NCBI GenBank assembly: GCA_043816185.1
Contig: JBDRIG010000050.1
Coordinates: 1 to 40,889 of the forward strand
Source of the DNA: Elusimicrobiota bacterium
Lineage (GTDB): Bacteria; Elusimicrobiota; UBA8919
Length of the DNA: 40,889 nt
Reading direction: 5' to 3'
A program made the position numbers and the translations under genes. Positions 4,532 to 21,628 of this stretch are shown in pieces. The notes under the pieces are model-generated. The model was not told the DNA's origin and did not search any database. It saw only the letters and a program-made list of their open reading frames with translations. Within the stretch, counting starts at the first letter, position 1. Every line of letters begins with the position of its first letter.

Positions 4532-4636
4532 CAAGAATCGCCTCGCCAAGAATCGCCTCGCCAAGAATTGTCTTGTCAAGAATTGTTTCGCCAAGAATTA
4601 TCTCGCCAAGAATTATCTCGTCAAGAATTGTTTCGT
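4532..4636. repeat. Seven-unit degenerate 15-bp tandem repeat (CAAGAATYRYYTYGY)
   Basis: Units begin at 4532, 4547, 4562, 4577, 4592, 4607, 4622; the last overlaps the helicase 3' end. Confidence 0.9.
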
Positions 4637-7600
4637 TTTGCTGAACAAACATTGTTGAATGGGCAGTAATTACATGAGAGGTATCGTGGGACTGCTACAA
4701 AATTTTTGTTTTTAATTCCTTCTGAAACTTTTTCTATAGTTTTTTCCATTTTTTCAATCATCTTATCGTCGGGTACAATTGAACCAATAACGCCTGTATC
4801 AACAAAATGTAACTCCACTCTCAAAGGCATTTTTCCTGTAATTCTCTTCCATGCAAGTGCATACATAGCGAGTTGAGTGCTTTTTTGAGCCCTATCATCC
4901 GCTTCATCTTTATCGGAAATATCAGACGTTTTGAAATCAATTATCACCGCACCTTTTTCAACTAAAGAATTATTTACCCTGCCTAATAAATCAACCCTGT
5001 CAAACCTACCCGTAATAATATCGTCGCCAAATATAAATTTGAATTTTTTTTCGATATATTTAGGAATTATTTTGGATTTTTGTTCACGTTGAAAAAATTT
5101 TCTTAAAGTTTGTCTGCCATTTTCTAATCGCATTTCTTCATGCTCGCGTGATAAAAATCCAGACGATTGCCAATTTGTTTCAAATTTTTTTGAAAGTTCC
5201 GACAAATCAACGTGCTTACCATCCATCTTCCTTTTGTAATAAAATTGAATTGTTTCGTGCATCGCATTTCCATAAATTATGGAGTGATTTGCCATAACAG
5301 GAATTTTTAATATATGAATATATTTATATTTCAACGGGCAGGTAAGATAATCGTCAATCTGAAAATGGCTCAACATCAATTGTTTAGATATTGGTACTTT
5401 TAAGATATTTGAAGAACTTTCTGTAATTTCATTTTTTTTAATCACTTCTATCGGATGAAGTTTTTTTGCTACAATTTTCATCTGTATGGTCGACACTAAA
5501 TTAATTGCCTCATAAACAAACTGACTTATTTTTTTTTCTCTTTGCCCACCATAATCACAAGCAGATGTAAGATAAAGTTTATCTTTCGCTCTGGTCATAC
5601 CAACGTAAAAAAGTCGTCTTTCTTCCTGTATGTGAAAATTACCAAACGGCAAAATATCTTTTACAAGTGAATCTGGAATTTCTATGCATTCCTTTCTGCG
5701 TCTTGTTGGAAATTTATTTTGAATCAACGAAACCATAAACACAACAGGAAATTCAAGGCCTTTCGCTTTGTGAATCGTTAAAATATTTATAGCGTCGGTA
5801 TCTGAATCCACTTCCGCTGTCGCTGGATTACTTCCCGCTTCAATAATGGCAGAAAGATGGGATGTAAAAAATTGCAGTTTATCAGTTTTTCCAATTTCGG
5901 AATAATTTTTGACTATTTCAAAAAATAAAGCAATGTTTGAGACTGCCTCAACATTCTTTGAATCTTGTTTAATGGAGAGATTGGCAAGTTCTTTTAGCCA
6001 ACCTGTTTCACTAATAAATTTGTACAATATCTGACCTGTTGATAATTCTCGCGATAATTCGACATATTTTTTAATATCGTCGGTAATTCTTTTAATAATT
6101 TTTTTTCCATCTTCGGTTATTTGACCAACAATTGTCGGATAAATATCTTTCGTATCAAATTTATTGAACACATTATACAATGGAATTTTTTTGTTTGAGG
6201 ACTCGCTAAGAAGTATTGTTAAATCAACCATCGGCATTTTATAAATCTCGGATGATGAAAGATGAAACAACGAAATATTGTCTGATAAATTCGAAACGAT
6301 TTTAAGAAATGATATTAAAATCTTTATTTCTTCTCTCTCATAAAGTCCACTTCTGCCTGAAAAATGCCATGGAATATTTTTAATATTGAATGATTTAATA
6401 AATGGCATAGCATCATTGTTCGAACGAACAAGAATTGCAATATTTGAATATTTTCTTCCATTTTTTAATAAATCAATTATTTTTTCCGCTACGAAATCCG
6501 CCTCATTGGACACGGTATCAAAATGATGATGTTGAACTACAGGCAATTGCCGATCAGATTTATCGTGAGTAAGACAATCGGCAACTGGTAGTTTATCTAC
6601 GGCAACAAGTTTTTTGTTAATTCCATTTTTAACCTCTAAGCGATCAGGATTATTATATTTTATAAGCGTATAAGCACTATCTAATATTTGTTGATGCGAG
6701 CGGTAGTTCTTCGTGAGAACAACTTGTTTTGTTTTCGGATATGCTTTTTTAAAATTTAATATATTTGAAATCGCCGCACCTCGAAATTTATAAATTGAGT
6801 TGTGCACGACAACATTGTTAGCAATAAAATTGTGTGTTTTGTCAATTTCCAAATCATATACAACCATATCTTTCCAGCGTTCTTCGACTGCAACTACTTT
6901 TTCATAGAAAATTCTCCCATTTCTAATAACTGGAAGAAAATGTCCAAGCATAACATTGCCTGCTGGCATAATCAACGCAGATTTACGCTGAATATAACAG
7001 GTGCCGACGGCAAATTTGGTTTCTATTATTCCATTGGTGATTTTTTTTAATCTATCGGCAAACTCGCTGACTTTTTTTACGTCGCAACTTGCAAAACAAA
7101 TTCTAACACCTTTTTTTACTGGAAACAGATTTATTTTTGATTTTCGCAATTTTACAATTACATCTGGATTAGATGTTTGCATGCTGACCTGATGCAATAT
7201 TTGTGTATATTTATCGGCAATAAAACCCTTCTCCTTTGCCTTATATTTTCTGGAACACATTTGAATACTTATTTTAATACGACTACTATCTTCATTGGTT
7301 GTTGCGTCAAGATAGTGATGAAAATAATTTAAGTTGATTCTTAGATCTTGCGCCATTCGCATCGCATTTTTATTTGTATCAATTTGTTGACATAGTGCAA
7401 TCAACCATTTTTCTCGTATTGCAGTTTTTTGTCTAACTGAAAAACAAACCGTTGGTATTTGATATTTTAGAGATAACAATGTTTCATAAAGTTTTGCTTC
7501 TGTTTCTGAATTAAAACTTTTAATTCCTACGATAAAATTAGAAAATTTTTCTGTCCGTGAGCATGTAGATAGATCGTTTATAACGCCAATCCGCCATTCT

Positions 7601-8733
7601 AAATTTTTATGACACATACACATAAGATAAACATAATATATTTTACCATTTTTTACATACGATGGACTATGGCAAAACATTTTATGATTATCGGTGACGG
7701 TAATTCTTGAGTTTTTCTCGGTAGTAATTGTAAGAAAACGGGTTTTTTTTCTATTTTTGAAAACGCGCAAAACTTTAGAGGTAGATGTGTATCCTTTACC
7801 GACGGCAGTAATCACAGTAGTATCTGGCTTTATGTCTCTAATCTTTTTGTCACCATTTGGCGTTTTAATTAGAGCGTCTGATGGTAAACATTGGTCGTCG
7901 TCGCCAACGACAGTTATATTTTTCCCCCTGTTTAGTAAAATTTTAAGCAGTTGAAATTGAGAATAATTTGTGTCCTGAAATTCGTCCACGAGAATATATT
8001 TAAATTTTTCACGATATTTTTTTAGTATCGACGGATAACTTCTAAAAAGTTTTAACGCCAGCCATACCTGATCGCTAAAATCTATCAATCCATATTGCAT
8101 TTTTAAATCTTCATATTTTTTGTAAATTTGTGAAATTTCTTTCTGAATAATAAAATTATCCAACAGTTCACTATTCTTTGGTTCTTTTTTGATAGCGATA
8201 TTTAGTGATTGAACGTGGTCTGCATATTCTTGGCACGAAATATCTTCATCTTTAAGACGAGAAAATAAAAATAACAACGCTTCAATATGTTTTTGTGGAT
8301 TACCCAACGGTCTCAACTTTTCCATTTGAAACTCAAAAAGATGTTCTTTAAAAAAGACGATTTGTTGTGGCTGTGCCATAACCTTGAAATCACTCGTTAG
8401 TCCCAAAAAAATCGATTCATCGTCCAAAATTCTGTTACCAAACGAATGAAACGTAGAAATCCATACATCAGCAAAACCATATGGCACAAGCACATCAACA
8501 CGCTCCTGCATCTCAGCGGCTGCTTTTTCAGTAAAGGTGAGAGCCAGAATTTCCTCGGGTTTTGCTTTTTTTTTGGAAATAAGGTATGCGATGCGATTTG
8601 CTATAACCGTTGTTTTTCCAGTTCCCGCACCAGCAATGATTAAAAGCGGACCTTTTTCATGAGCAACTGCCTTTTTTTGTTCAGGATTTAATTGTAATAA
8701 AAGATTTTCAATTTTCATTCTGATAGTTTCCAA
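4621..8733 (-). CDS. UvrD/PcrA-family helicase with intein and C-terminal PD-(D/E)XK nuclease carrying Fe-S-type cysteines
   Basis: AGAGTGKT, VDEFQD, TIHKAKGLEF, EERRLFYVGMTRA; C-terminal GRFDRVD..IIDFKT with TCP..CNYCPFNNVC. Confidence 0.92.
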   Translation of the reverse strand: METIRMKIENLLLQLNPEQKKAVAHEKGPLLIIAGAGTGKTTVIANRIAYLISKKKAKPEEILALTFTEKAAAEMQERVDVLVPYGFADVWISTFHSFGNRILDDESIFLGLTSDFKVMAQPQQIVFFKEHLFEFQMEKLRPLGNPQKHIEALLFLFSRLKDEDISCQEYADHVQSLNIAIKKEPKNSELLDNFIIQKEISQIYKKYEDLKMQYGLIDFSDQVWLALKLFRSYPSILKKYREKFKYILVDEFQDTNYSQFQLLKILLNRGKNITVVGDDDQCLPSDALIKTPNGDKKIRDIKPDTTVITAVGKGYTSTSKVLRVFKNRKKTRFLTITTEKNSRITVTDNHKMFCHSPSYVKNGKIYYVYLMCMCHKNLEWRIGVINDLSTCSRTEKFSNFIVGIKSFNSETEAKLYETLLSLKYQIPTVCFSVRQKTAIREKWLIALCQQIDTNKNAMRMAQDLRINLNYFHHYLDATTNEDSSRIKISIQMCSRKYKAKEKGFIADKYTQILHQVSMQTSNPDVIVKLRKSKINLFPVKKGVRICFASCDVKKVSEFADRLKKITNGIIETKFAVGTCYIQRKSALIMPAGNVMLGHFLPVIRNGRIFYEKVVAVEERWKDMVVYDLEIDKTHNFIANNVVVHNSIYKFRGAAISNILNFKKAYPKTKQVVLTKNYRSHQQILDSAYTLIKYNNPDRLEVKNGINKKLVAVDKLPVADCLTHDKSDRQLPVVQHHHFDTVSNEADFVAEKIIDLLKNGRKYSNIAILVRSNNDAMPFIKSFNIKNIPWHFSGRSGLYEREEIKILISFLKIVSNLSDNISLFHLSSSEIYKMPMVDLTILLSESSNKKIPLYNVFNKFDTKDIYPTIVGQITEDGKKIIKRITDDIKKYVELSRELSTGQILYKFISETGWLKELANLSIKQDSKNVEAVSNIALFFEIVKNYSEIGKTDKLQFFTSHLSAIIEAGSNPATAEVDSDTDAINILTIHKAKGLEFPVVFMVSLIQNKFPTRRRKECIEIPDSLVKDILPFGNFHIQEERRLFYVGMTRAKDKLYLTSACDYGGQREKKISQFVYEAINLVSTIQMKIVAKKLHPIEVIKKNEITESSSNILKVPISKQLMLSHFQIDDYLTCPLKYKYIHILKIPVMANHSIIYGNAMHETIQFYYKRKMDGKHVDLSELSKKFETNWQSSGFLSREHEEMRLENGRQTLRKFFQREQKSKIIPKYIEKKFKFIFGDDIITGRFDRVDLLGRVNNSLVEKGAVIIDFKTSDISDKDEADDRAQKSTQLAMYALAWKRITGKMPLRVELHFVDTGVIGSIVPDDKMIEKMEKTIEKVSEGIKNKNFVAVPRYLSCNYCPFNNVCSAKRNNS
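6799..7890 (-). mobile_element. Intein (364 aa) in helicase motif III
   Basis: VGDDDQ|CLPSDALI...VTDNHKMF...VYDLEIDKTHNFIANNVVVHN|SIYKFRGA; removing it restores the conserved GDDDQSIYxFRGA motif. Confidence 0.96.
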
Positions 8734-9165: not shown

Positions 9166-10008
9166 TTATCTATCTCTTAATTTTTTGTTCTGTTGTTTCG
9201 ACAGATAATTTTCGGAAGTGACAACACTGCGGCTGGTTTCCTGTTCCAGTTTTTTTCGCGCTACTCCCGCAACATTGCCACCACGGCAGGAGACATTCCG
9301 GTTTTCTTCAAAGCCGCTTGGATGTTCCACTTTGGTAATCTGCGTTGTGGATGCTTCACCGAGCATAGAAAAGATGAGTTCAAGGTCAGTCATATGGTCC
9401 CTGAGGTTCTGTCTTTCCAAGCCTTTGAGTTTTTTGTATTGGCTTGGTGTTAAGCCAAAAGCGGCTTTGGATATCTCCGCAGTCAGGATTTCGTATTCTT
9501 TGTTTTTTTCAACACCGTGTTTTTTCCATTCGTCTGTAAGTTCTTCTCGGATGGCAATCCCACGCATTCGTTTTTCAATCCATTCATCGCTGTACCCTTT
9601 TGCCTTGTATATTGCACGCGTCCTCTTGGTTGCCAATTCTGGGTCTTCAATCTCCTGAATCCGTTCATAACCAACCTTTGCCAGCCAGCGTTTAAACGGC
9701 TCAGCTTTTGGGGAGGGAATGGATTGAATTATGCGGAATATTCCTTCCGTATTAGCGCAATCGGTTTCTCGCATTTTTCCATCTGGAGCGGGTAATTTCA
9801 ACCCGTGACAAAATGTCACGACTTCACTTCCTTCCTCTTGAAGCCTTTGTTTCAACTTTCTCCAGTACGCCCCAGCATCAACGCTATCTGTTAATACCGC
9901 GCACACATCCACAACAGAAAACCACCACTCGTTTTTGTGAATGGTTTTTCGTATCTCCTTGTTTCTAAAAACCGCTATTTTTGTTGAAGAAATCAATTCA
10001 TTTCCCAT
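9166..10008 (-). CDS. BRO-N domain (phage antirepressor-like) DNA-binding protein
   Basis: EWWFSVVDV, YWRKLKQRL, RIIQSIPSPKAEPFKRWLA, NLRDHMTDLELIF; AGGAGG RBS; visibly GC-richer than its neighbours. Confidence 0.9.
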   Translation of the reverse strand: MGNELISSTKIAVFRNKEIRKTIHKNEWWFSVVDVCAVLTDSVDAGAYWRKLKQRLQEEGSEVVTFCHGLKLPAPDGKMRETDCANTEGIFRIIQSIPSPKAEPFKRWLAKVGYERIQEIEDPELATKRTRAIYKAKGYSDEWIEKRMRGIAIREELTDEWKKHGVEKNKEYEILTAEISKAAFGLTPSQYKKLKGLERQNLRDHMTDLELIFSMLGEASTTQITKVEHPSGFEENRNVSCRGGNVAGVARKKLEQETSRSVVTSENYLSKQQNKKLRDR

Positions 10009-12859: not shown

Positions 12860-13210
12860 TTAATGATATAAAAAACCCGTAATAAAGAATACGATAAAAG
12901 CAACAATAAATATGATTACTGAATTTTGTAAGAAGGAAAGGATAATATATAAAATTACACTTGGTTTAGTCTTCCCACCTCTGAGAATAAATTTCTGAAG
13001 AAAAGAAGAATCAAGTTTAATCTCTTTACCTTCGCAATTCGCAATGTAATTTTGATAATGCTCTGATTTTAGTAGAATATTAGCAATAGCAATTATAATG
13101 GCCCCCACCAGTGATTGCCAACCCCATCCCGGACCAGCAAAAAGACCAATACCCAAGCCAGTGCCTATACAAAGAAAAAATTCTGTTCCTGAACTCATTA
13201 TTTTTATCAT
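12860..13210 (-). CDS. Hypothetical membrane protein inside the trp operon
   Basis: 116-aa ORF with about three hydrophobic segments; ATG overlaps the TGA of the duplicated trpG tail. Confidence 0.6.
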
Positions 13211-13256
13211 TTTTGGTTTAACTCCAAAAAGTTTTTTAATAATTTTTTGCCGGGTT
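13206..13256 (-). repeat. Duplicate of the trpG 3' end (direct repeat of 14203-14253)
   Basis: 46/51 identical; reads [15 protein letters not shown] against [15 protein letters not shown] in trpG. Confidence 0.92.
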
Positions 13257-13259
13257 ATT

Positions 13260-14207
13260 TCACTCCATATTTGTAATACCTATACTTTCATTCCACCATT
13301 TTTCAAACGGCGGTTTATTCGGAGTTTTCTTTATCTCGCTATATTGCCCTCTTGCTAATGTGTCCGTTGACGGCACATTAAAACAAGAACCAGCAGAGAT
13401 TAACCATCTGTCGTGAATAACCGACTTAATTTTGTTATCAGATATTACCCTTAATTCACATTTTACATTATTATTTTGGAACTCCTGCTTAAAATCTCTG
13501 AATGAACTTTTTAATTTATCGTCAACTTTGTCATCGGACATCAAAATTTTTATAACTTTTACTTTTTCAATGTCCACCGAATCGGCTAATAATTCCAGTC
13601 CAATCTTTGAAAAATATTTATCAACCCAATAAATGTGTTTTCTGCAAGACCTTATAATATCCTTAAAGTTTTTCTTGTTCGTGAACGGCTTTTCAGGAGA
13701 AATCAATATTGCTTCGGGTGTTGCCGACGGAATGAAATGTATTGCCCTAAATATCGTTTTGATTTTCTTGTCATGCTTTTCAACTTTTTGCTCAATCGCA
13801 TCTATTCTGTTAGTGAATTTTTTATTGGCGGAAACTATTCTTCTTACATTCACAAATACGCGTATAATGCCGATATTTACCTGAATTGCTCTGGGACTGT
13901 TCAATACGCTTGACAACATTGCAACACCATGCTCTGTAAAGGCGTAAGGATTGGCACGACGTAACCCACCCCAACTTGAAATCACAAATTGTGATTTCAA
14001 GTTTTTGAACTCTTCATTACTCAATTGAAACATAAAATCATCGGGAAATCGTTCTATATTTCTCTTTACAGCCTGAACCAATACGCGTGGCTCTACTCCA
14101 TAAAGTTTTGCCAAATCAACACTTATTATTACTTTTTGCCCTCTGATTAAAAATATTTTATTTTCTATCTGCGACGATGGAACACTTATAATTATATTTT
14201 TCATCAT
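13260..14207 (-). CDS. ORF6N-domain DNA-binding protein with C-terminal PLD-like domain (copy 1)
   Basis: [50 protein letters not shown]; C-terminal [14 protein letters not shown]; start moved to ATG 14207 overlapping the trpG stop. Confidence 0.9.
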
Positions 14208-14803
14208 TTTTTGTTTAACTCCAAAAAATTTTTCAATATTTTTTTGCCTGGTTTTGTTAAAATTGACTCTGGATGAAATTGAATGCCTTCTACGCAACAG
14301 TTGAGAGTTGGAAACTGAGAGTTGAGAGTTTTAAGTCGAAATCCCATGATTTCGTTTTCTTTTGTCAGTGCGGAAATTTCAAAACATTTTGGGAGTGATT
14401 TTTTTTCAACCACAAGAGAATGGTATCTGGTTGCATCAAATGGATTTGGAAGTCCATTGAATATTGTTTTATTATCATGATAAATCATAGATGTTTTTCC
14501 GTGCATAAGTTTTTTTGCATGAATTATTTTTCCACCAAACGCAGCACCTATTGACTGATGACCAAGACATACGCCAAGAATTGGAATTTTTCCAGCAAAA
14601 TGTTTTGCGACTTCTACAGAAATACCCGCTTCTTTTGGAGTACAAGGACCCGGTGAAATTACAATGTGCGATGGCTTAAATTTTTCTATTTCTGAAATTG
14701 TAATTTTATTATTCCGAAAAACTTTTATATTCGGATTTAACTCGCCGAGATACTGAACCAAATTATAAACAAACGAATCGTAATTATCAATAACAAGAAT
14801 CAT
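14204..14803 (-). CDS. trpG: Anthranilate synthase component II (glutamine amidotransferase)
   Basis: [32 protein letters not shown]. Confidence 0.96.
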
Positions 14804-18881: not shown

Positions 18882-19500
18882 AATTTTTTAGAAGTTTAAG
18901 TCCGTTTTTCTGACTTTTTTCAGGATGAAATTGTGTAGCAAAAATATTTTTGTAAAAAACTGATGATGCAAATTTGATTCCATGCTCAGTAGTTGTTGCA
19001 ATTATTTTTTTGTCTTGTGGCTCAACATAATAGGAATGCACAAAATAAAAATAAGAATTATCTTTTATCTCTTTGAATATCTTGCATCTTGCATCTTGCA
19101 TCTTGCATTTAACATTATTCCACCCCATATGCGGAATTTTTAATAGTTGGGAGTTGGGAGTTGGGAGTTGGGAGAAATTAAATTTCTTCACTTTACCCTT
19201 AAGAATTCCAAACCCATTGCAATTTCCTTCTTCACTTCGCTCAAAAAGTAATTGTAATCCAAGGCATAATCCCAAAAACGGATTGCCACTATCAATCACT
19301 TTATATATCGTATCCACAAGATTCAGTTTTCCAAGATTTTTCATTGCTGCTGAAAATGAACCAACGCCTGGAAGTACAACCAACGACGAATCTAAAATTT
19401 TTTTTCTATCGTCCGTAATAATCGTTTTTTTGCCAATAAACTCAAACGCCTTCTGAACACTTCTTAAATTTCCCATCCCGTAGTCAATTATGGTTATCAT
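18859..19500 (-). CDS. hisH: Imidazole glycerol phosphate synthase glutaminase subunit
   Basis: IIDYGMGNL, LPGVG, GLCLGLQ, PHMGWN, YFVHSY, QFHPEKS. Confidence 0.96.
   Translation of the reverse strand: MITIIDYGMGNLRSVQKAFEFIGKKTIITDDRKKILDSSLVVLPGVGSFSAAMKNLGKLNLVDTIYKVIDSGNPFLGLCLGLQLLFERSEEGNCNGFGILKGKVKKFNFSQLPTPNSQLLKIPHMGWNNVKCKMQDARCKIFKEIKDNSYFYFVHSYYVEPQDKKIIATTTEHGIKFASSVFYKNIFATQFHPEKSQKNGLKLLKNYVDYTGN
19079..19174. repeat. Two heptamer arrays inside hisH: (ATCTTGC)x4 and (AGTTGGG)x4
   Basis: Perfect arrays at 19079-19106 and 19145-19172. Confidence 0.95.
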
Positions 19501-19568
19501 ATTTCGTATTCGTATACCAAATTAGAATTTTTCAAATCACATCATTTTTTGGAAAACGATATGCCATT

Positions 19569-19915
19569 CTAATTGCCGATATGTATCATCAATTTTTTTA
19601 AATCTTCTATTGTTGCAGGTCTATATGTTAATTCATCCATTGTTTTTTATTTCCTTTTATCTTTCATAATATGCTTTATTCGGGCAATATTTGTTTCCAT
19701 AATGCTCAGTATTATTTTATGTCGCTACTATTCTATTTTTCTGTCTCTAACCCTTTTAGAAACTTCATCTACAGAATTTTCTACTATTTTTTCAAATTCG
19801 GTCGCCAAGTTGTTACCGAAATTGTGAAGTATTACAGCAAGGACAAGTGTCGTTTCTGCCAATTTTAGGTTCTCTTCTTACAGGTTCAGTAATATATGAA
19901 GTATTTTCAGAATAT
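19569..19915 (-). pseudogene. Mosaic of gene fragments (SEC-C-like motif, orphan C-terminus, nucleotidyltransferase-like N-terminus)
   Basis: Minus-strand translations EPVRREPKIGRNDTCPCC (19887-19834), ..ATEFEKIVENSVDEVSKRVRDRKIE*, and RBS + MDELTYRPATIEDLKKLMIHIGN* (19640-19569). Confidence 0.5.
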
Positions 19916-19918
19916 TTT

Positions 19919-20854
19919 CTAAATATCTTTACTTTTGTTCCACCATTCATTAAATGGCGGAAAATTTGCCGTTCTTTTTACTTCACTGTATTGTCCCCTT
20001 GCAACAGTATCGGTTGATGGTATATTATAGCATAGATTTTCTGAAATAATCCATCTATCGTGAATACCTACCTTCAATTTGTTATCAAACATAATCCGTA
20101 ATTCACACTGGACACCGTCACTTTTGAGTTCTTTCTTTAAATCTTTATACAGTGATATGAACTTTTTATCCGCCTTTTCCGACGACATTAAAATTTTAAT
20201 ACTTTTTACCTTACTGGTATTAAGTGATTCTGACAACCAATCCAACCCTGTTCTTGAAAAATATTTATCTACCCAGTAAATATATTTTTCGCAAGAACCA
20301 ATAATATCCCTGATTGCTTTTTTATTTGAATATGGTTTATCCGGAGATAATAATCTTGTTTCTGATGGTCCATGTATAACTTCAAAAATCGTTCTTATCT
20401 TTTTATCGTGTAATTCAACCGCATATTCCAATTGACTTATCTTATTAAGAATTACCCTATTTGACACTACCAATTTCCTGATATTTACAAATACCCGCAT
20501 TATACCGATATTTACCTGAATAGCTCTTTTACTGTTAAGAATACTAGAAAGCATAGCAACGCCCTGTTCTGTGAAGACATATGGTAAATAACGGTGACCA
20601 CCCCATCTTGAGGTTTCAATTTGAAACCTCAAGTTTGAGGTAACAATTTGGCACCTCAAGTTATCAAATTCTTCTTTGGTTAACTGAAACATAAAATCAT
20701 ATGGAAATCTGTCTATATTTCTTTTTACTGCAAGATTAAGTGATTTTGTTGGTACTCCATAAAGTTCAGATAAATCCCTATCCAACATTACGTTCAGACC
20801 TCTAATCAAAAATATCTTCTTCTCAATACTGTCCTGTTTAACAATGTCTGTCAT
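19919..20854 (-). CDS. ORF6N-domain DNA-binding protein with C-terminal PLD-like domain (copy 2)
   Basis: Paralogue of 13260-14207 along its length (AVKRNIDRFP, FTEQGVAMLSS, WVDKYF, IHDRWIIS, PSTDTVARGQYSE); start moved to MTDIVK behind GGAAGG. Confidence 0.9.
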   Translation of the reverse strand: MTDIVKQDSIEKKIFLIRGLNVMLDRDLSELYGVPTKSLNLAVKRNIDRFPYDFMFQLTKEEFDNLRCQIVTSNLRFQIETSRWGGHRYLPYVFTEQGVAMLSSILNSKRAIQVNIGIMRVFVNIRKLVVSNRVILNKISQLEYAVELHDKKIRTIFEVIHGPSETRLLSPDKPYSNKKAIRDIIGSCEKYIYWVDKYFSRTGLDWLSESLNTSKVKSIKILMSSEKADKKFISLYKDLKKELKSDGVQCELRIMFDNKLKVGIHDRWIISENLCYNIPSTDTVARGQYSEVKRTANFPPFNEWWNKSKDI

Positions 20855-20904
20855 TTTTTCCTTCCATCCCAAAAGCGGCCTTTTCGGTTTAATTCCGCTG
20901 GAGT

Positions 20905-21005
20905 GGCTGTCCGACAATTAGCAAAAAATGTCAAAAGACGAATATACAAGTTTGTTGGAGCGATATATTCGTTTTTCATCTAAAAATGATGGTTGTCGGC
21001 CAGCC
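20905..21005. mobile_element. MITE-like palindromic element of about 100 bp
   Basis: Terminal GGCTGTCCGACAA / TTGTCGGCCAGCC (12/13) plus inner ACGAATATA / TATATTCGT inverted repeat. Confidence 0.6.
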
Positions 21006-21049
21006 TAAATATCAATGCGGAAAGCCACAGGGAATTGCAAGTTCAAATA

Positions 21050-21628
21050 TCATAACATCTTTTTTGTCGAAGGTATTCCTCTGATTTTTTTATTGATTTT
21101 TACTGCTTGCTGGAGTGCTTTTGCAAAACCCTTAAAGACGGATTCTGCAATGTGATGATTGTTTTTCCCAGTGTGATTTTTTATGTGCAGATTTATTTCA
21201 CAAGAGTTTGAGATTGCACGGAAAAATTCGGAAAGTAAAGAATAGTCAAAGTCAACGGATTTTTCGAATCGCACATCAAAGGAAAAATACGGTCTGCCTG
21301 ATAAATCAATTGCCACATAACTTAATGCTTCATCCATTGGCAATAAAAAATTGCCGTACCTTGAAATTCCAACTTTTTTACCAAGTGCTTTTTTTATTGC
21401 TAAACCGATAACAATTCCTAAATCTTCAACAAGATGATGATTATCAACATTAGTGTCACCATACGCTTTTACATCCAAATCAACCAAAGAATGCTTTGAG
21501 AAAAGTGAAAGCATATGATCAATAAAAGGAATCGTGGTTTTTATTCTGTATTTTCCATAACCGTCCAAATTAAGTGAAAGTTCTATGTCTGTTTCTGCTG
21601 TTTTTCTTTTTATTTTTGATTTTCTCAT
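21050..21628 (-). CDS. hisB: Imidazoleglycerol-phosphate dehydratase
   Basis: RKTAETDI, DHML, DNHHLVEDLGI, PMDEAL, NNHHIAESVFK; start moved to MRKSK behind GGAGG. Confidence 0.96.
   Translation of the reverse strand: MRKSKIKRKTAETDIELSLNLDGYGKYRIKTTIPFIDHMLSLFSKHSLVDLDVKAYGDTNVDNHHLVEDLGIVIGLAIKKALGKKVGISRYGNFLLPMDEALSYVAIDLSGRPYFSFDVRFEKSVDFDYSLLSEFFRAISNSCEINLHIKNHTGKNNHHIAESVFKGFAKALQQAVKINKKIRGIPSTKKML

Follow-up and report, generated by a model that had tools for sequence, protein, structure and literature searches.

Palindromic DNA that lies in frame within genes and adds a tolerated peptide, as it does in the ORF6N genes considered here, has been described in Rickettsia, where the Rickettsia palindromic elements (RPEs) are MITE-like sequences of about 150 bp that are scattered in unrelated genes (PMC10969869). 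The ORF6N palindrome shares this general design, but is 27-31 nt long and, across phyla, keeps to a single homologous position in one domain family; it is not dispersed over many unrelated genes in the manner of an RPE, 103 of the 116 copies in our census lying inside ORF6N-like ORFs. The ORF6N units also recall the PARCELs: tandem coding repeats of variable number, with dyad-symmetric DNA and a link to mobile elements, which consist of 25-residue amphipathic repeats in long tracts within membrane-targeted proteins (PMC2996958). In contrast, ORF6N units encode 9 residues, are present in 1-4 copies and lie inside a DNA-binding domain. A third point of comparison is parS within spo0J/parB, a binding site inside the gene of its own binder: there too, a palindromic cis site lies inside the gene of a DNA-binding protein, the two travel together, and further copies exist elsewhere. 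However, the arms of the ORF6N palindrome covary, which is not required of a plain duplex site, and binding by the ORF6N protein is putative here.

A further known process bears on how such a palindrome could be kept. Quasipalindrome template-switch mutagenesis is reported to copy one arm onto the other, homogenising the arms of inverted repeats, and can keep stems perfect and produce paired changes (PMC7202029, PMC8604942, PMC8794818). This explains the upkeep of pairing, but not the family-wide retention of the palindrome at one ORF6N site with rare codons. The ORF6N palindrome is different from RPEs, PARCELs and parS-type sites in being short, restricted to one position, independent of the reading frame and covarying, and we found no description of it in the literature on ORF6N.

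The palindrome is present as a doubled unit in one of the two ORF6N genes of the window, i.e. the whole 40,889-base stretch of DNA that was analysed. The features referred to below are as follows.

19919..20854, minus strand: ORF6N copy 2 gene (311 aa), encoding an ORF6N domain, a helical linker and a C-terminal domain of PLD-like fold; between hisB and hisH
20607..20633, minus strand: unit B, a perfect 13+1+13 palindrome; codons (N)LRFQIETS(R); adjoins the conserved WGG
20634..20660, minus strand: unit A, an imperfect copy (10/13 pairs); codons (N)LRCQIVTS(N); the unit that the nearest one-unit homologues lack
13260..14207, minus strand: ORF6N copy 1 gene (315 aa), with 56% identity to copy 2; between trpG and trpD
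13973..14003, minus strand: the only palindrome of ORF6N copy 1; its 15+1+15 arms are perfect and show compensatory changes when compared with copy 2

A conserved DNA palindrome in ORF6N genes

Both window genes match the ORF6N profile in full (Pfam PF10543, profile positions 1-86), with 119.3 bits for copy 2 and 116.9 bits for copy 1 at a gathering cut-off of 27.8; the ATG of copy 2 is codon 22 of the ORF 19919-20917. Within copy 2, a repeat search found a direct repeat of 27-nt copies at 20608-20634 and 20635-20661, 85% alike, and an inverted repeat in each unit: the arms of unit B (20607-19 and 20621-33) are 13 nt long, 100% complementary and 1 nt apart, and those of unit A (20635-46 and 20648-59) are 83% complementary, with a script count of 10/13 pairs. 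On the minus, coding strand, unit A lies upstream in the gene and reads NLRCQIVTS, followed by unit B as NLRFQIETS, both in frame. The repeat search and the pair count bear out, coordinates included, the description of two 27-bp units, one perfect and one with 10/13 pairs, that a sequence-only reading of this DNA had given. Matches to TTGAGG-N3-CAAATTG-N2-ACCTCAA are confined within the window to the two unit sites, with 4 matches over both strands where 0.01 are expected, a number reached in 0 of 100 shuffles.

Units A and B differ at 5 of 27 bases: four are arm positions (-5, -4, +4 and +5), and the fifth is the outermost base. Between the copy 1 palindrome and unit B, the changes are paired (AGG/CCT to AAA/TTT, and TTT/AAA to TCA/TGA), and positions ±4 and ±5 differ in both comparisons, in agreement with the earlier claim that the units vary mainly at those inner arm positions that also vary between paralogues. 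A BLASTP alignment of copy 1 with copy 2 has a lone 9-residue gap, exactly at one unit. Under synonymous recoding, 7.3 pairs are expected for unit B, compared with the 13/13 observed (p=0.0004), and 6.4 for unit A, compared with 10/13 (p=0.02).

In ORF6N-domain genes, the palindrome is conserved as a nucleotide element at one homologous position, and it is the DNA that is conserved rather than the peptide. A scan of species-representative genomes confirmed 592 relatives, from which the best 80 loci, belonging to many phyla, were kept; because the search was seeded on two conserved peptides, these loci sample one broad subfamily. The conserved anchor was found in 74 of the 80 loci, and in those the best 27-nt palindrome upstream of the anchor is the same motif. 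When the same residues were recoded with each locus's own codon usage, the natural palindrome beat the recoded versions at p<=0.01 in 79 of 79 genes, and at p<=0.001 in 74 of them, with a mean pairing of 12.08/13 against an expectation of 5.21. All 13 pairs are formed in 28 units, 12 in 31 units, 11 in 18 units, and 10 or fewer in 2 units. The motif Arg is encoded by AGA or AGG in 65 of 65 codons, compared with a background of 15-53% (15% in GC-rich loci), and the motif Leu by TTG in 55 of 72.

The same picture emerges from covariation. In an alignment of 88 units, both sides change in 11 of the 15 pairs, and compensated cells number 193 as opposed to 72±7.5 after shuffling, the observed value being reached in 0 of 500 shuffles; 88.5% of cells are paired, as opposed to 24-45% when the partners are slid, and since the units were selected as best palindromes, such pairing percentages are inflated, whereas the compensated changes are not. 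Even the core can change: CAAATTG becomes GAAAATTTC in some distant members with pairing retained, at 13/13 in Treponema and 12/13 in L. geestiana. Among 10 more distant plasmid genes, 8 have at least 11 pairs at the site, the Alistipes gene has 9/13, and the Haliovirga gene has no palindrome of at least 10/13 there. One locus (L019:2370-4739) carries four ORF6N-like genes in a row, with its own palindrome variant in each. In a phage collection, 5 records match the ORF6N domain, all of them unannotated, and a megablast search of E. coli genomes with the commonest palindrome variant gave no match.

Would such an element act as DNA or as RNA? A hairpin in the ORF6N mRNA could control translation, processing or stability, and the second unit would then lengthen or double its stem. 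The 74-nt two-unit stretch does fold as RNA, at -27.6 kcal/mol (z -4.8), and some extragenic copies lie in transcribed places, in 5' leaders or just past stop codons; the DNA of the same stretch folds at -16.9 kcal/mol (z -5.9), and the copy 1 palindrome as a DNA hairpin at -13.3 kcal/mol (z -5.9). An RNA stem would, however, be expected to tolerate G·U pairs on the sense strand, and the mismatches in 85 units show no excess of the compatible class (G·T 16, A·C 27, other 42). Furthermore, A and T are about equally frequent at the centre (42 and 41 times), which leaves the element without strand polarity. The lack of a G·U bias and the strand-neutral centre favour a DNA element over an RNA hairpin. 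Nor did an Rfam 15 scan of the gene rise above chance level (best E 0.31, below its gathering score), the three weak matches that overlap the palindrome (E 2-8.4) being likewise below their gathering scores; a scan of 19400-21200 placed no terminator-like site at 20607-20660, and its promoter and terminator counts are at shuffle level. All in all, the evidence argues for a palindrome that acts at the DNA level and not as an RNA hairpin, and we regard the latter as unlikely.

Free copies, reading frames and the encoded peptide

A census of 478 kb counted 116 palindromes, 95 of them in phase 0 of ORF6N ORFs, 8 in other phases and 13 outside. The 8 in other phases were assigned on stop-to-stop ORFs, and 5 of these are really in 5' leaders; nearly all of the 13 outside copies are no more than 230 nt from an ORF6N ORF. 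In about 10 genes a copy precedes the start codon, at a distance of roughly 26-170 nt. In Butyrivibrio, a perfect copy 29 nt before the start has the same unusual arms as the in-gene copy, and in B. finegoldii a copy lies 72 nt before the start. In L. oakridgensis, a copy is found 3 nt after the stop. One perfect copy is solitary, in the spacer between a Sir2 gene and dinB on the Sulfurospirillum diekertiae plasmid pSDCE1 (L091:1499-1527); it is common to two near-identical Sulfurospirillum plasmids, and there is no ORF6N similarity within 1.5 kb of it. Neither ORF6N gene of the window has a copy outside the gene, and the same is true of most others. Where upstream and in-gene copies are both present, they have the variable core in common in only about 5 of 11 genes, so that the variable bases, although they must pair, do not seem to mark specificity.

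Free and solitary copies are what one might expect of a selfish or mutational element, a MITE-like in-frame passenger without a role in the gene, kept perfect by template switching and forming arrays as it proliferates. The arrays stand in frame, in a loop of low model confidence, and their second units decay; in-frame palindromic elements are moreover known from Rickettsia (PMC10969869). Against this, the palindrome holds one homologous position in 79 of 79 genes, drawn from many phyla, which fits ancestry with the domain and does not fit sporadic insertion. Its rare codons are retained even in GC-rich genomes, and among window palindromes of at least 10/13 pairs there are none of the ORF6N type in unrelated genes. 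We consider it improbable that the palindrome is simply a passenger.

The reading frame tells us more about the constraint. The centre of the palindrome is the first base of the Ile/Phe codon (codon position 1); first codon positions pair with first positions, which hardly vary, and the second positions of one arm pair with the third positions of the other. Because centring on codon position 1 pairs second with third positions across the arms, the residues of the two arms vary together, F being matched by E, S by V or A, C, F or Y by G, R by T, and K by I. The variable position ahead of Gln is always filled by a residue whose codon begins with T (F, S, C, Y), and its partner is E, V/A or G; this restricted choice, the partners, and the R-T and K-I pairing all follow from the pairing of codon positions. 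Covariation between these loop residues is due to DNA pairing, not to protein contacts, a warning for readers of such alignments. Some relatives read the site in a different frame altogether. At the homologous domain position, the ORFs of L012 (390-1061) and L030 (5084-5629) read the palindrome in phase 1, yielding the peptides ELVPNWHQF and EVVANCDHL, as opposed to LRSQIVTS elsewhere; phase 1 is also used on two plasmids of Segatella copri and on one of Legionella geestiana, with 34-37% identity to the query, and in 3 of 149 representatives. This is a clean case of a nucleic-acid constraint that overrides codon choice, and even residues, across phyla.

In the structure model of copy 2, residues 72-87 (unit B and WGG) have a pLDDT below 50 and unit A is the continuation of a helix, and in the model of copy 1 the motif is placed at a helix end, running into coil, with a block mean pLDDT of 57. 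Judging from these models, the peptide encoded by the palindrome looks like a change-tolerant loop of low model confidence, in line with its readings in other frames and its varying unit numbers. One could also suppose that selection acts on the protein, the duplicated peptide extending a DNA-contacting wing and the palindrome being a by-product of its residues, and indeed most members conserve the peptide motif L-R-x-Q-[IF]-x-T-S. Yet the same residues recoded give only 5.2/13 pairs, where the site is read in a different phase the residues are unrelated, and the models give the segment low confidence, which makes selection on the peptide a very unlikely cause of the palindrome.

Gain and loss of units

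Unit numbers in close homologues of the window protein were scored on protein sequences. Of the 120 homologues listed, 115 were scorable, 96 having one unit and 18 two adjoining units; P0035 is a long variant and doubtful. Among those with two units, 13 go from 30 to 39 residues and 3 from 28 to 37, with P0108 and P0121 in addition, and the length difference in the window subfamily is always exactly 9 residues, i.e. one palindrome. On a tree built without the motif columns, there are 13 changes of unit state, at least 8 of which are forced by branches with SH-aLRT >=95, in a count whose two-unit label includes P0035 and which recombination could inflate. The window protein is the sole two-unit member of a well-supported clade with P0003 and P0004, its nearest relatives, each of which has one unit.

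More distant members extend this range. The best 149 diverse representatives provided 116 scorable domain instances, in which a strict pattern found one unit in 81, two in 12 and three in 1. Such members have 1-4 units, adjoining or separated by spacers, with two-unit spacings of 9 to 23 residues: there are four tandem 9-residue units in P0130, three units in P0133, and two identical units in P0185. Modules containing the whole palindrome have been repeatedly gained and lost, forming arrays of 1-4 units, and these changes in copy number lengthen the protein in nine-residue steps. The lability on the tree and the arrays support the earlier proposal that the palindrome is a modular unit, added in frame to give an array of variants; the count across ORF6N homologues that had been put forward as its check is the one given above. 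It had also been proposed that the duplication unit coincides with the palindrome, so that indels should end where the palindrome ends. The window subfamily agrees with this in length, with its steps of exactly 9 residues, but it is not so throughout: among 10 arrays at the DNA level, the centre-to-centre distance is 27 nt in 4 (the window, L004, L012 and L050), and 36, 39, 42, 45, 54 and 75 nt in the other 6. From these spacings, the repeated module always takes in a complete palindrome, though its ends are not in every case those of the palindrome. Within the arrays, one unit is usually near-perfect, and the other may decay, as unit A has done; in roughly half of the arrays this second unit exceeds its recoded expectation only slightly.

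Where does the second unit of the window come from? The two units are not a fresh duplicate, as their 5/27 differences attest. The unit A residues LRCQIVTS are the sole unit of another homologue group, and unit B and its tail match the nearest relatives. On sequence comparison, variant exchange or an old duplication would be as likely a source as local slippage, and the differences between the units, together with the occurrence of the unit A residues as the other group's sole unit, suggest an old duplication or a variant exchange rather than a recent slip. To look for a recombination hotspot at the palindrome, every pair among the 120 homologues was put through a maximum chi-square scan; strong breakpoints numbered no more than 44, with 15 in motif-side bins and 14 at residues 121-130. 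The idea of a one-off replication slip or an assembly error in this contig, with no wider meaning, is scarcely credible: the exact protein does come from a single contig (P0002: 1 member, 1 contig), but 17 other close homologues in separate records have two adjoining units, and the window's own units have diverged at 5 of their 27 bases.

In a number of representatives of 250-470 residues (P0127, P0129, P0132, P0134, P0135 and others), two stretches match the ORF6N query, which suggests that some of these proteins have two ORF6N domains.

A putative self-pairing site and the genes that carry it

Taken as a whole, the observations are best explained by a conserved, labile coding palindrome that serves as a cis-acting, self-pairing DNA site, a reading which we consider fairly probable. 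Such a site would have to pair with itself, and several forms could satisfy this: perhaps a hairpin, perhaps a cruciform, or a symmetric site for a dimer. The simplest putative binder would be the ORF6N protein itself, in which case gene and site would travel together. Complementarity of the arms would be kept by selection, aided by template-switch copying between them, and extra units could arise via slippage or unequal exchange between palindromes. The free copies at the starts and ends of genes suggest a part in gene control, or else marks of a cassette.

A more specific proposal is that the ORF6N gene carries, within its own CDS, the very hairpin or symmetric site that its product recognises, as a self-contained module of protein and site; this we advance tentatively, as possible but rather doubtful. 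If it were true, the module would spread via defence islands and conjugative elements, via small plasmids and even via biosynthetic operons, its own control or its action on DNA might be tuned by how many sites there are (1-4 inside the gene, together with free copies close by), and the residues of the loop would be dictated by DNA structure, not by the protein. The ORF6N family, whose members occur in defence islands and mobile elements, is very large (31,534 cluster representatives at E<=0.001, and 17,068 at E<=1e-10), and the palindrome offers a concrete handle on it; the self-pairing reading predicts a cis site that is open to binding assays and to synonymous recoding.

As for the proteins themselves, both ORF6N copies match a protein model (PDLC04869) of PDC-S05, which PADLOC lists as a candidate defence system; the E-value is 5.7e-66 with copy 2 and 5.1e-66 with copy 1. 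A PDC-S05 representative with a RhuM domain, which is another protein, cut the plating of T7 and T5 ~1000-fold (bioRxiv 10.1101/2024.09.26.614923). The C-terminal half of copy 2 is modelled as a confident PLD-like fold, with Foldseek matches to MITD1, TrmBL2, PLD4, PLD3, Nuc, Zucchini, SauUSI and NgoAVII (E 3e-5 to 9e-3), and there is a weak match to MIT_C (E about 0.09). The best fold matches, MITD1 and TrmBL2, are PLD-like domains that are not known to be catalytic. H-x-K is the catalytic motif of the phospholipase D superfamily nucleases, and the homologue alignment did not show it in the window ORF6N protein, whose invariant C-terminal motif is H265, D266, R267, i.e. H-D-R, with Arg at the expected Lys position. 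An HUH transposase was considered and rejected: in a profile search against solved structures, ISHp608 TnpA reached only E 0.26, the HUH motif is lost in the alignment, and the fold search leads to PLD-like domains instead.

The surroundings of these genes are varied. No convincing direct repeats flank ORF6N copy 2. Copy 1 is flanked by a direct repeat of ~52 nt (window 14196-14251 / 13200-13254), most aligned bases of which are identical, and which contains the last 15 trpG codons, the trpG stop and the start that follows; apparently the 3' end of trpG was duplicated either along with the arrival of the copy 1 gene or because of it. Elsewhere, an ORF6N gene on the Treponema saccharophilum plasmid pTS1 (L086) lies inside a type I restriction-modification operon, with a methyltransferase gene and a wHTH gene on one side and the S subunit on the other, and the Alistipes ORF6N gene has a KilA-N gene as one neighbour and an abortive-infection gene as the other. 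The Segatella copri plasmids L081 and L082 (2955 and 4140 bp) have a replication initiator and an ORF6N protein as their sole annotated genes. On a Bacteroides ovatus plasmid (L083:3331-3357), a 12/13-pair palindrome with the same core and GAAC/GTTC outer arms sits between two integrase genes, ~640 nt before a two-unit ORF6N gene, which is followed by a JAB-domain gene and then ardA.

Three KilA-N-type genes lie within amino-acid operons between positions 9166 and 21712 of the window: the two ORF6N genes and a Bro-N gene (PADLOC PDC-S13, E 1.6e-126), which follows trpF. At 4621-8733, the window also encodes a 1370-aa protein with a UvrD-type helicase and a PD-(D/E)XK nuclease domain, in which residues 309-645 match an intein-splicing domain.
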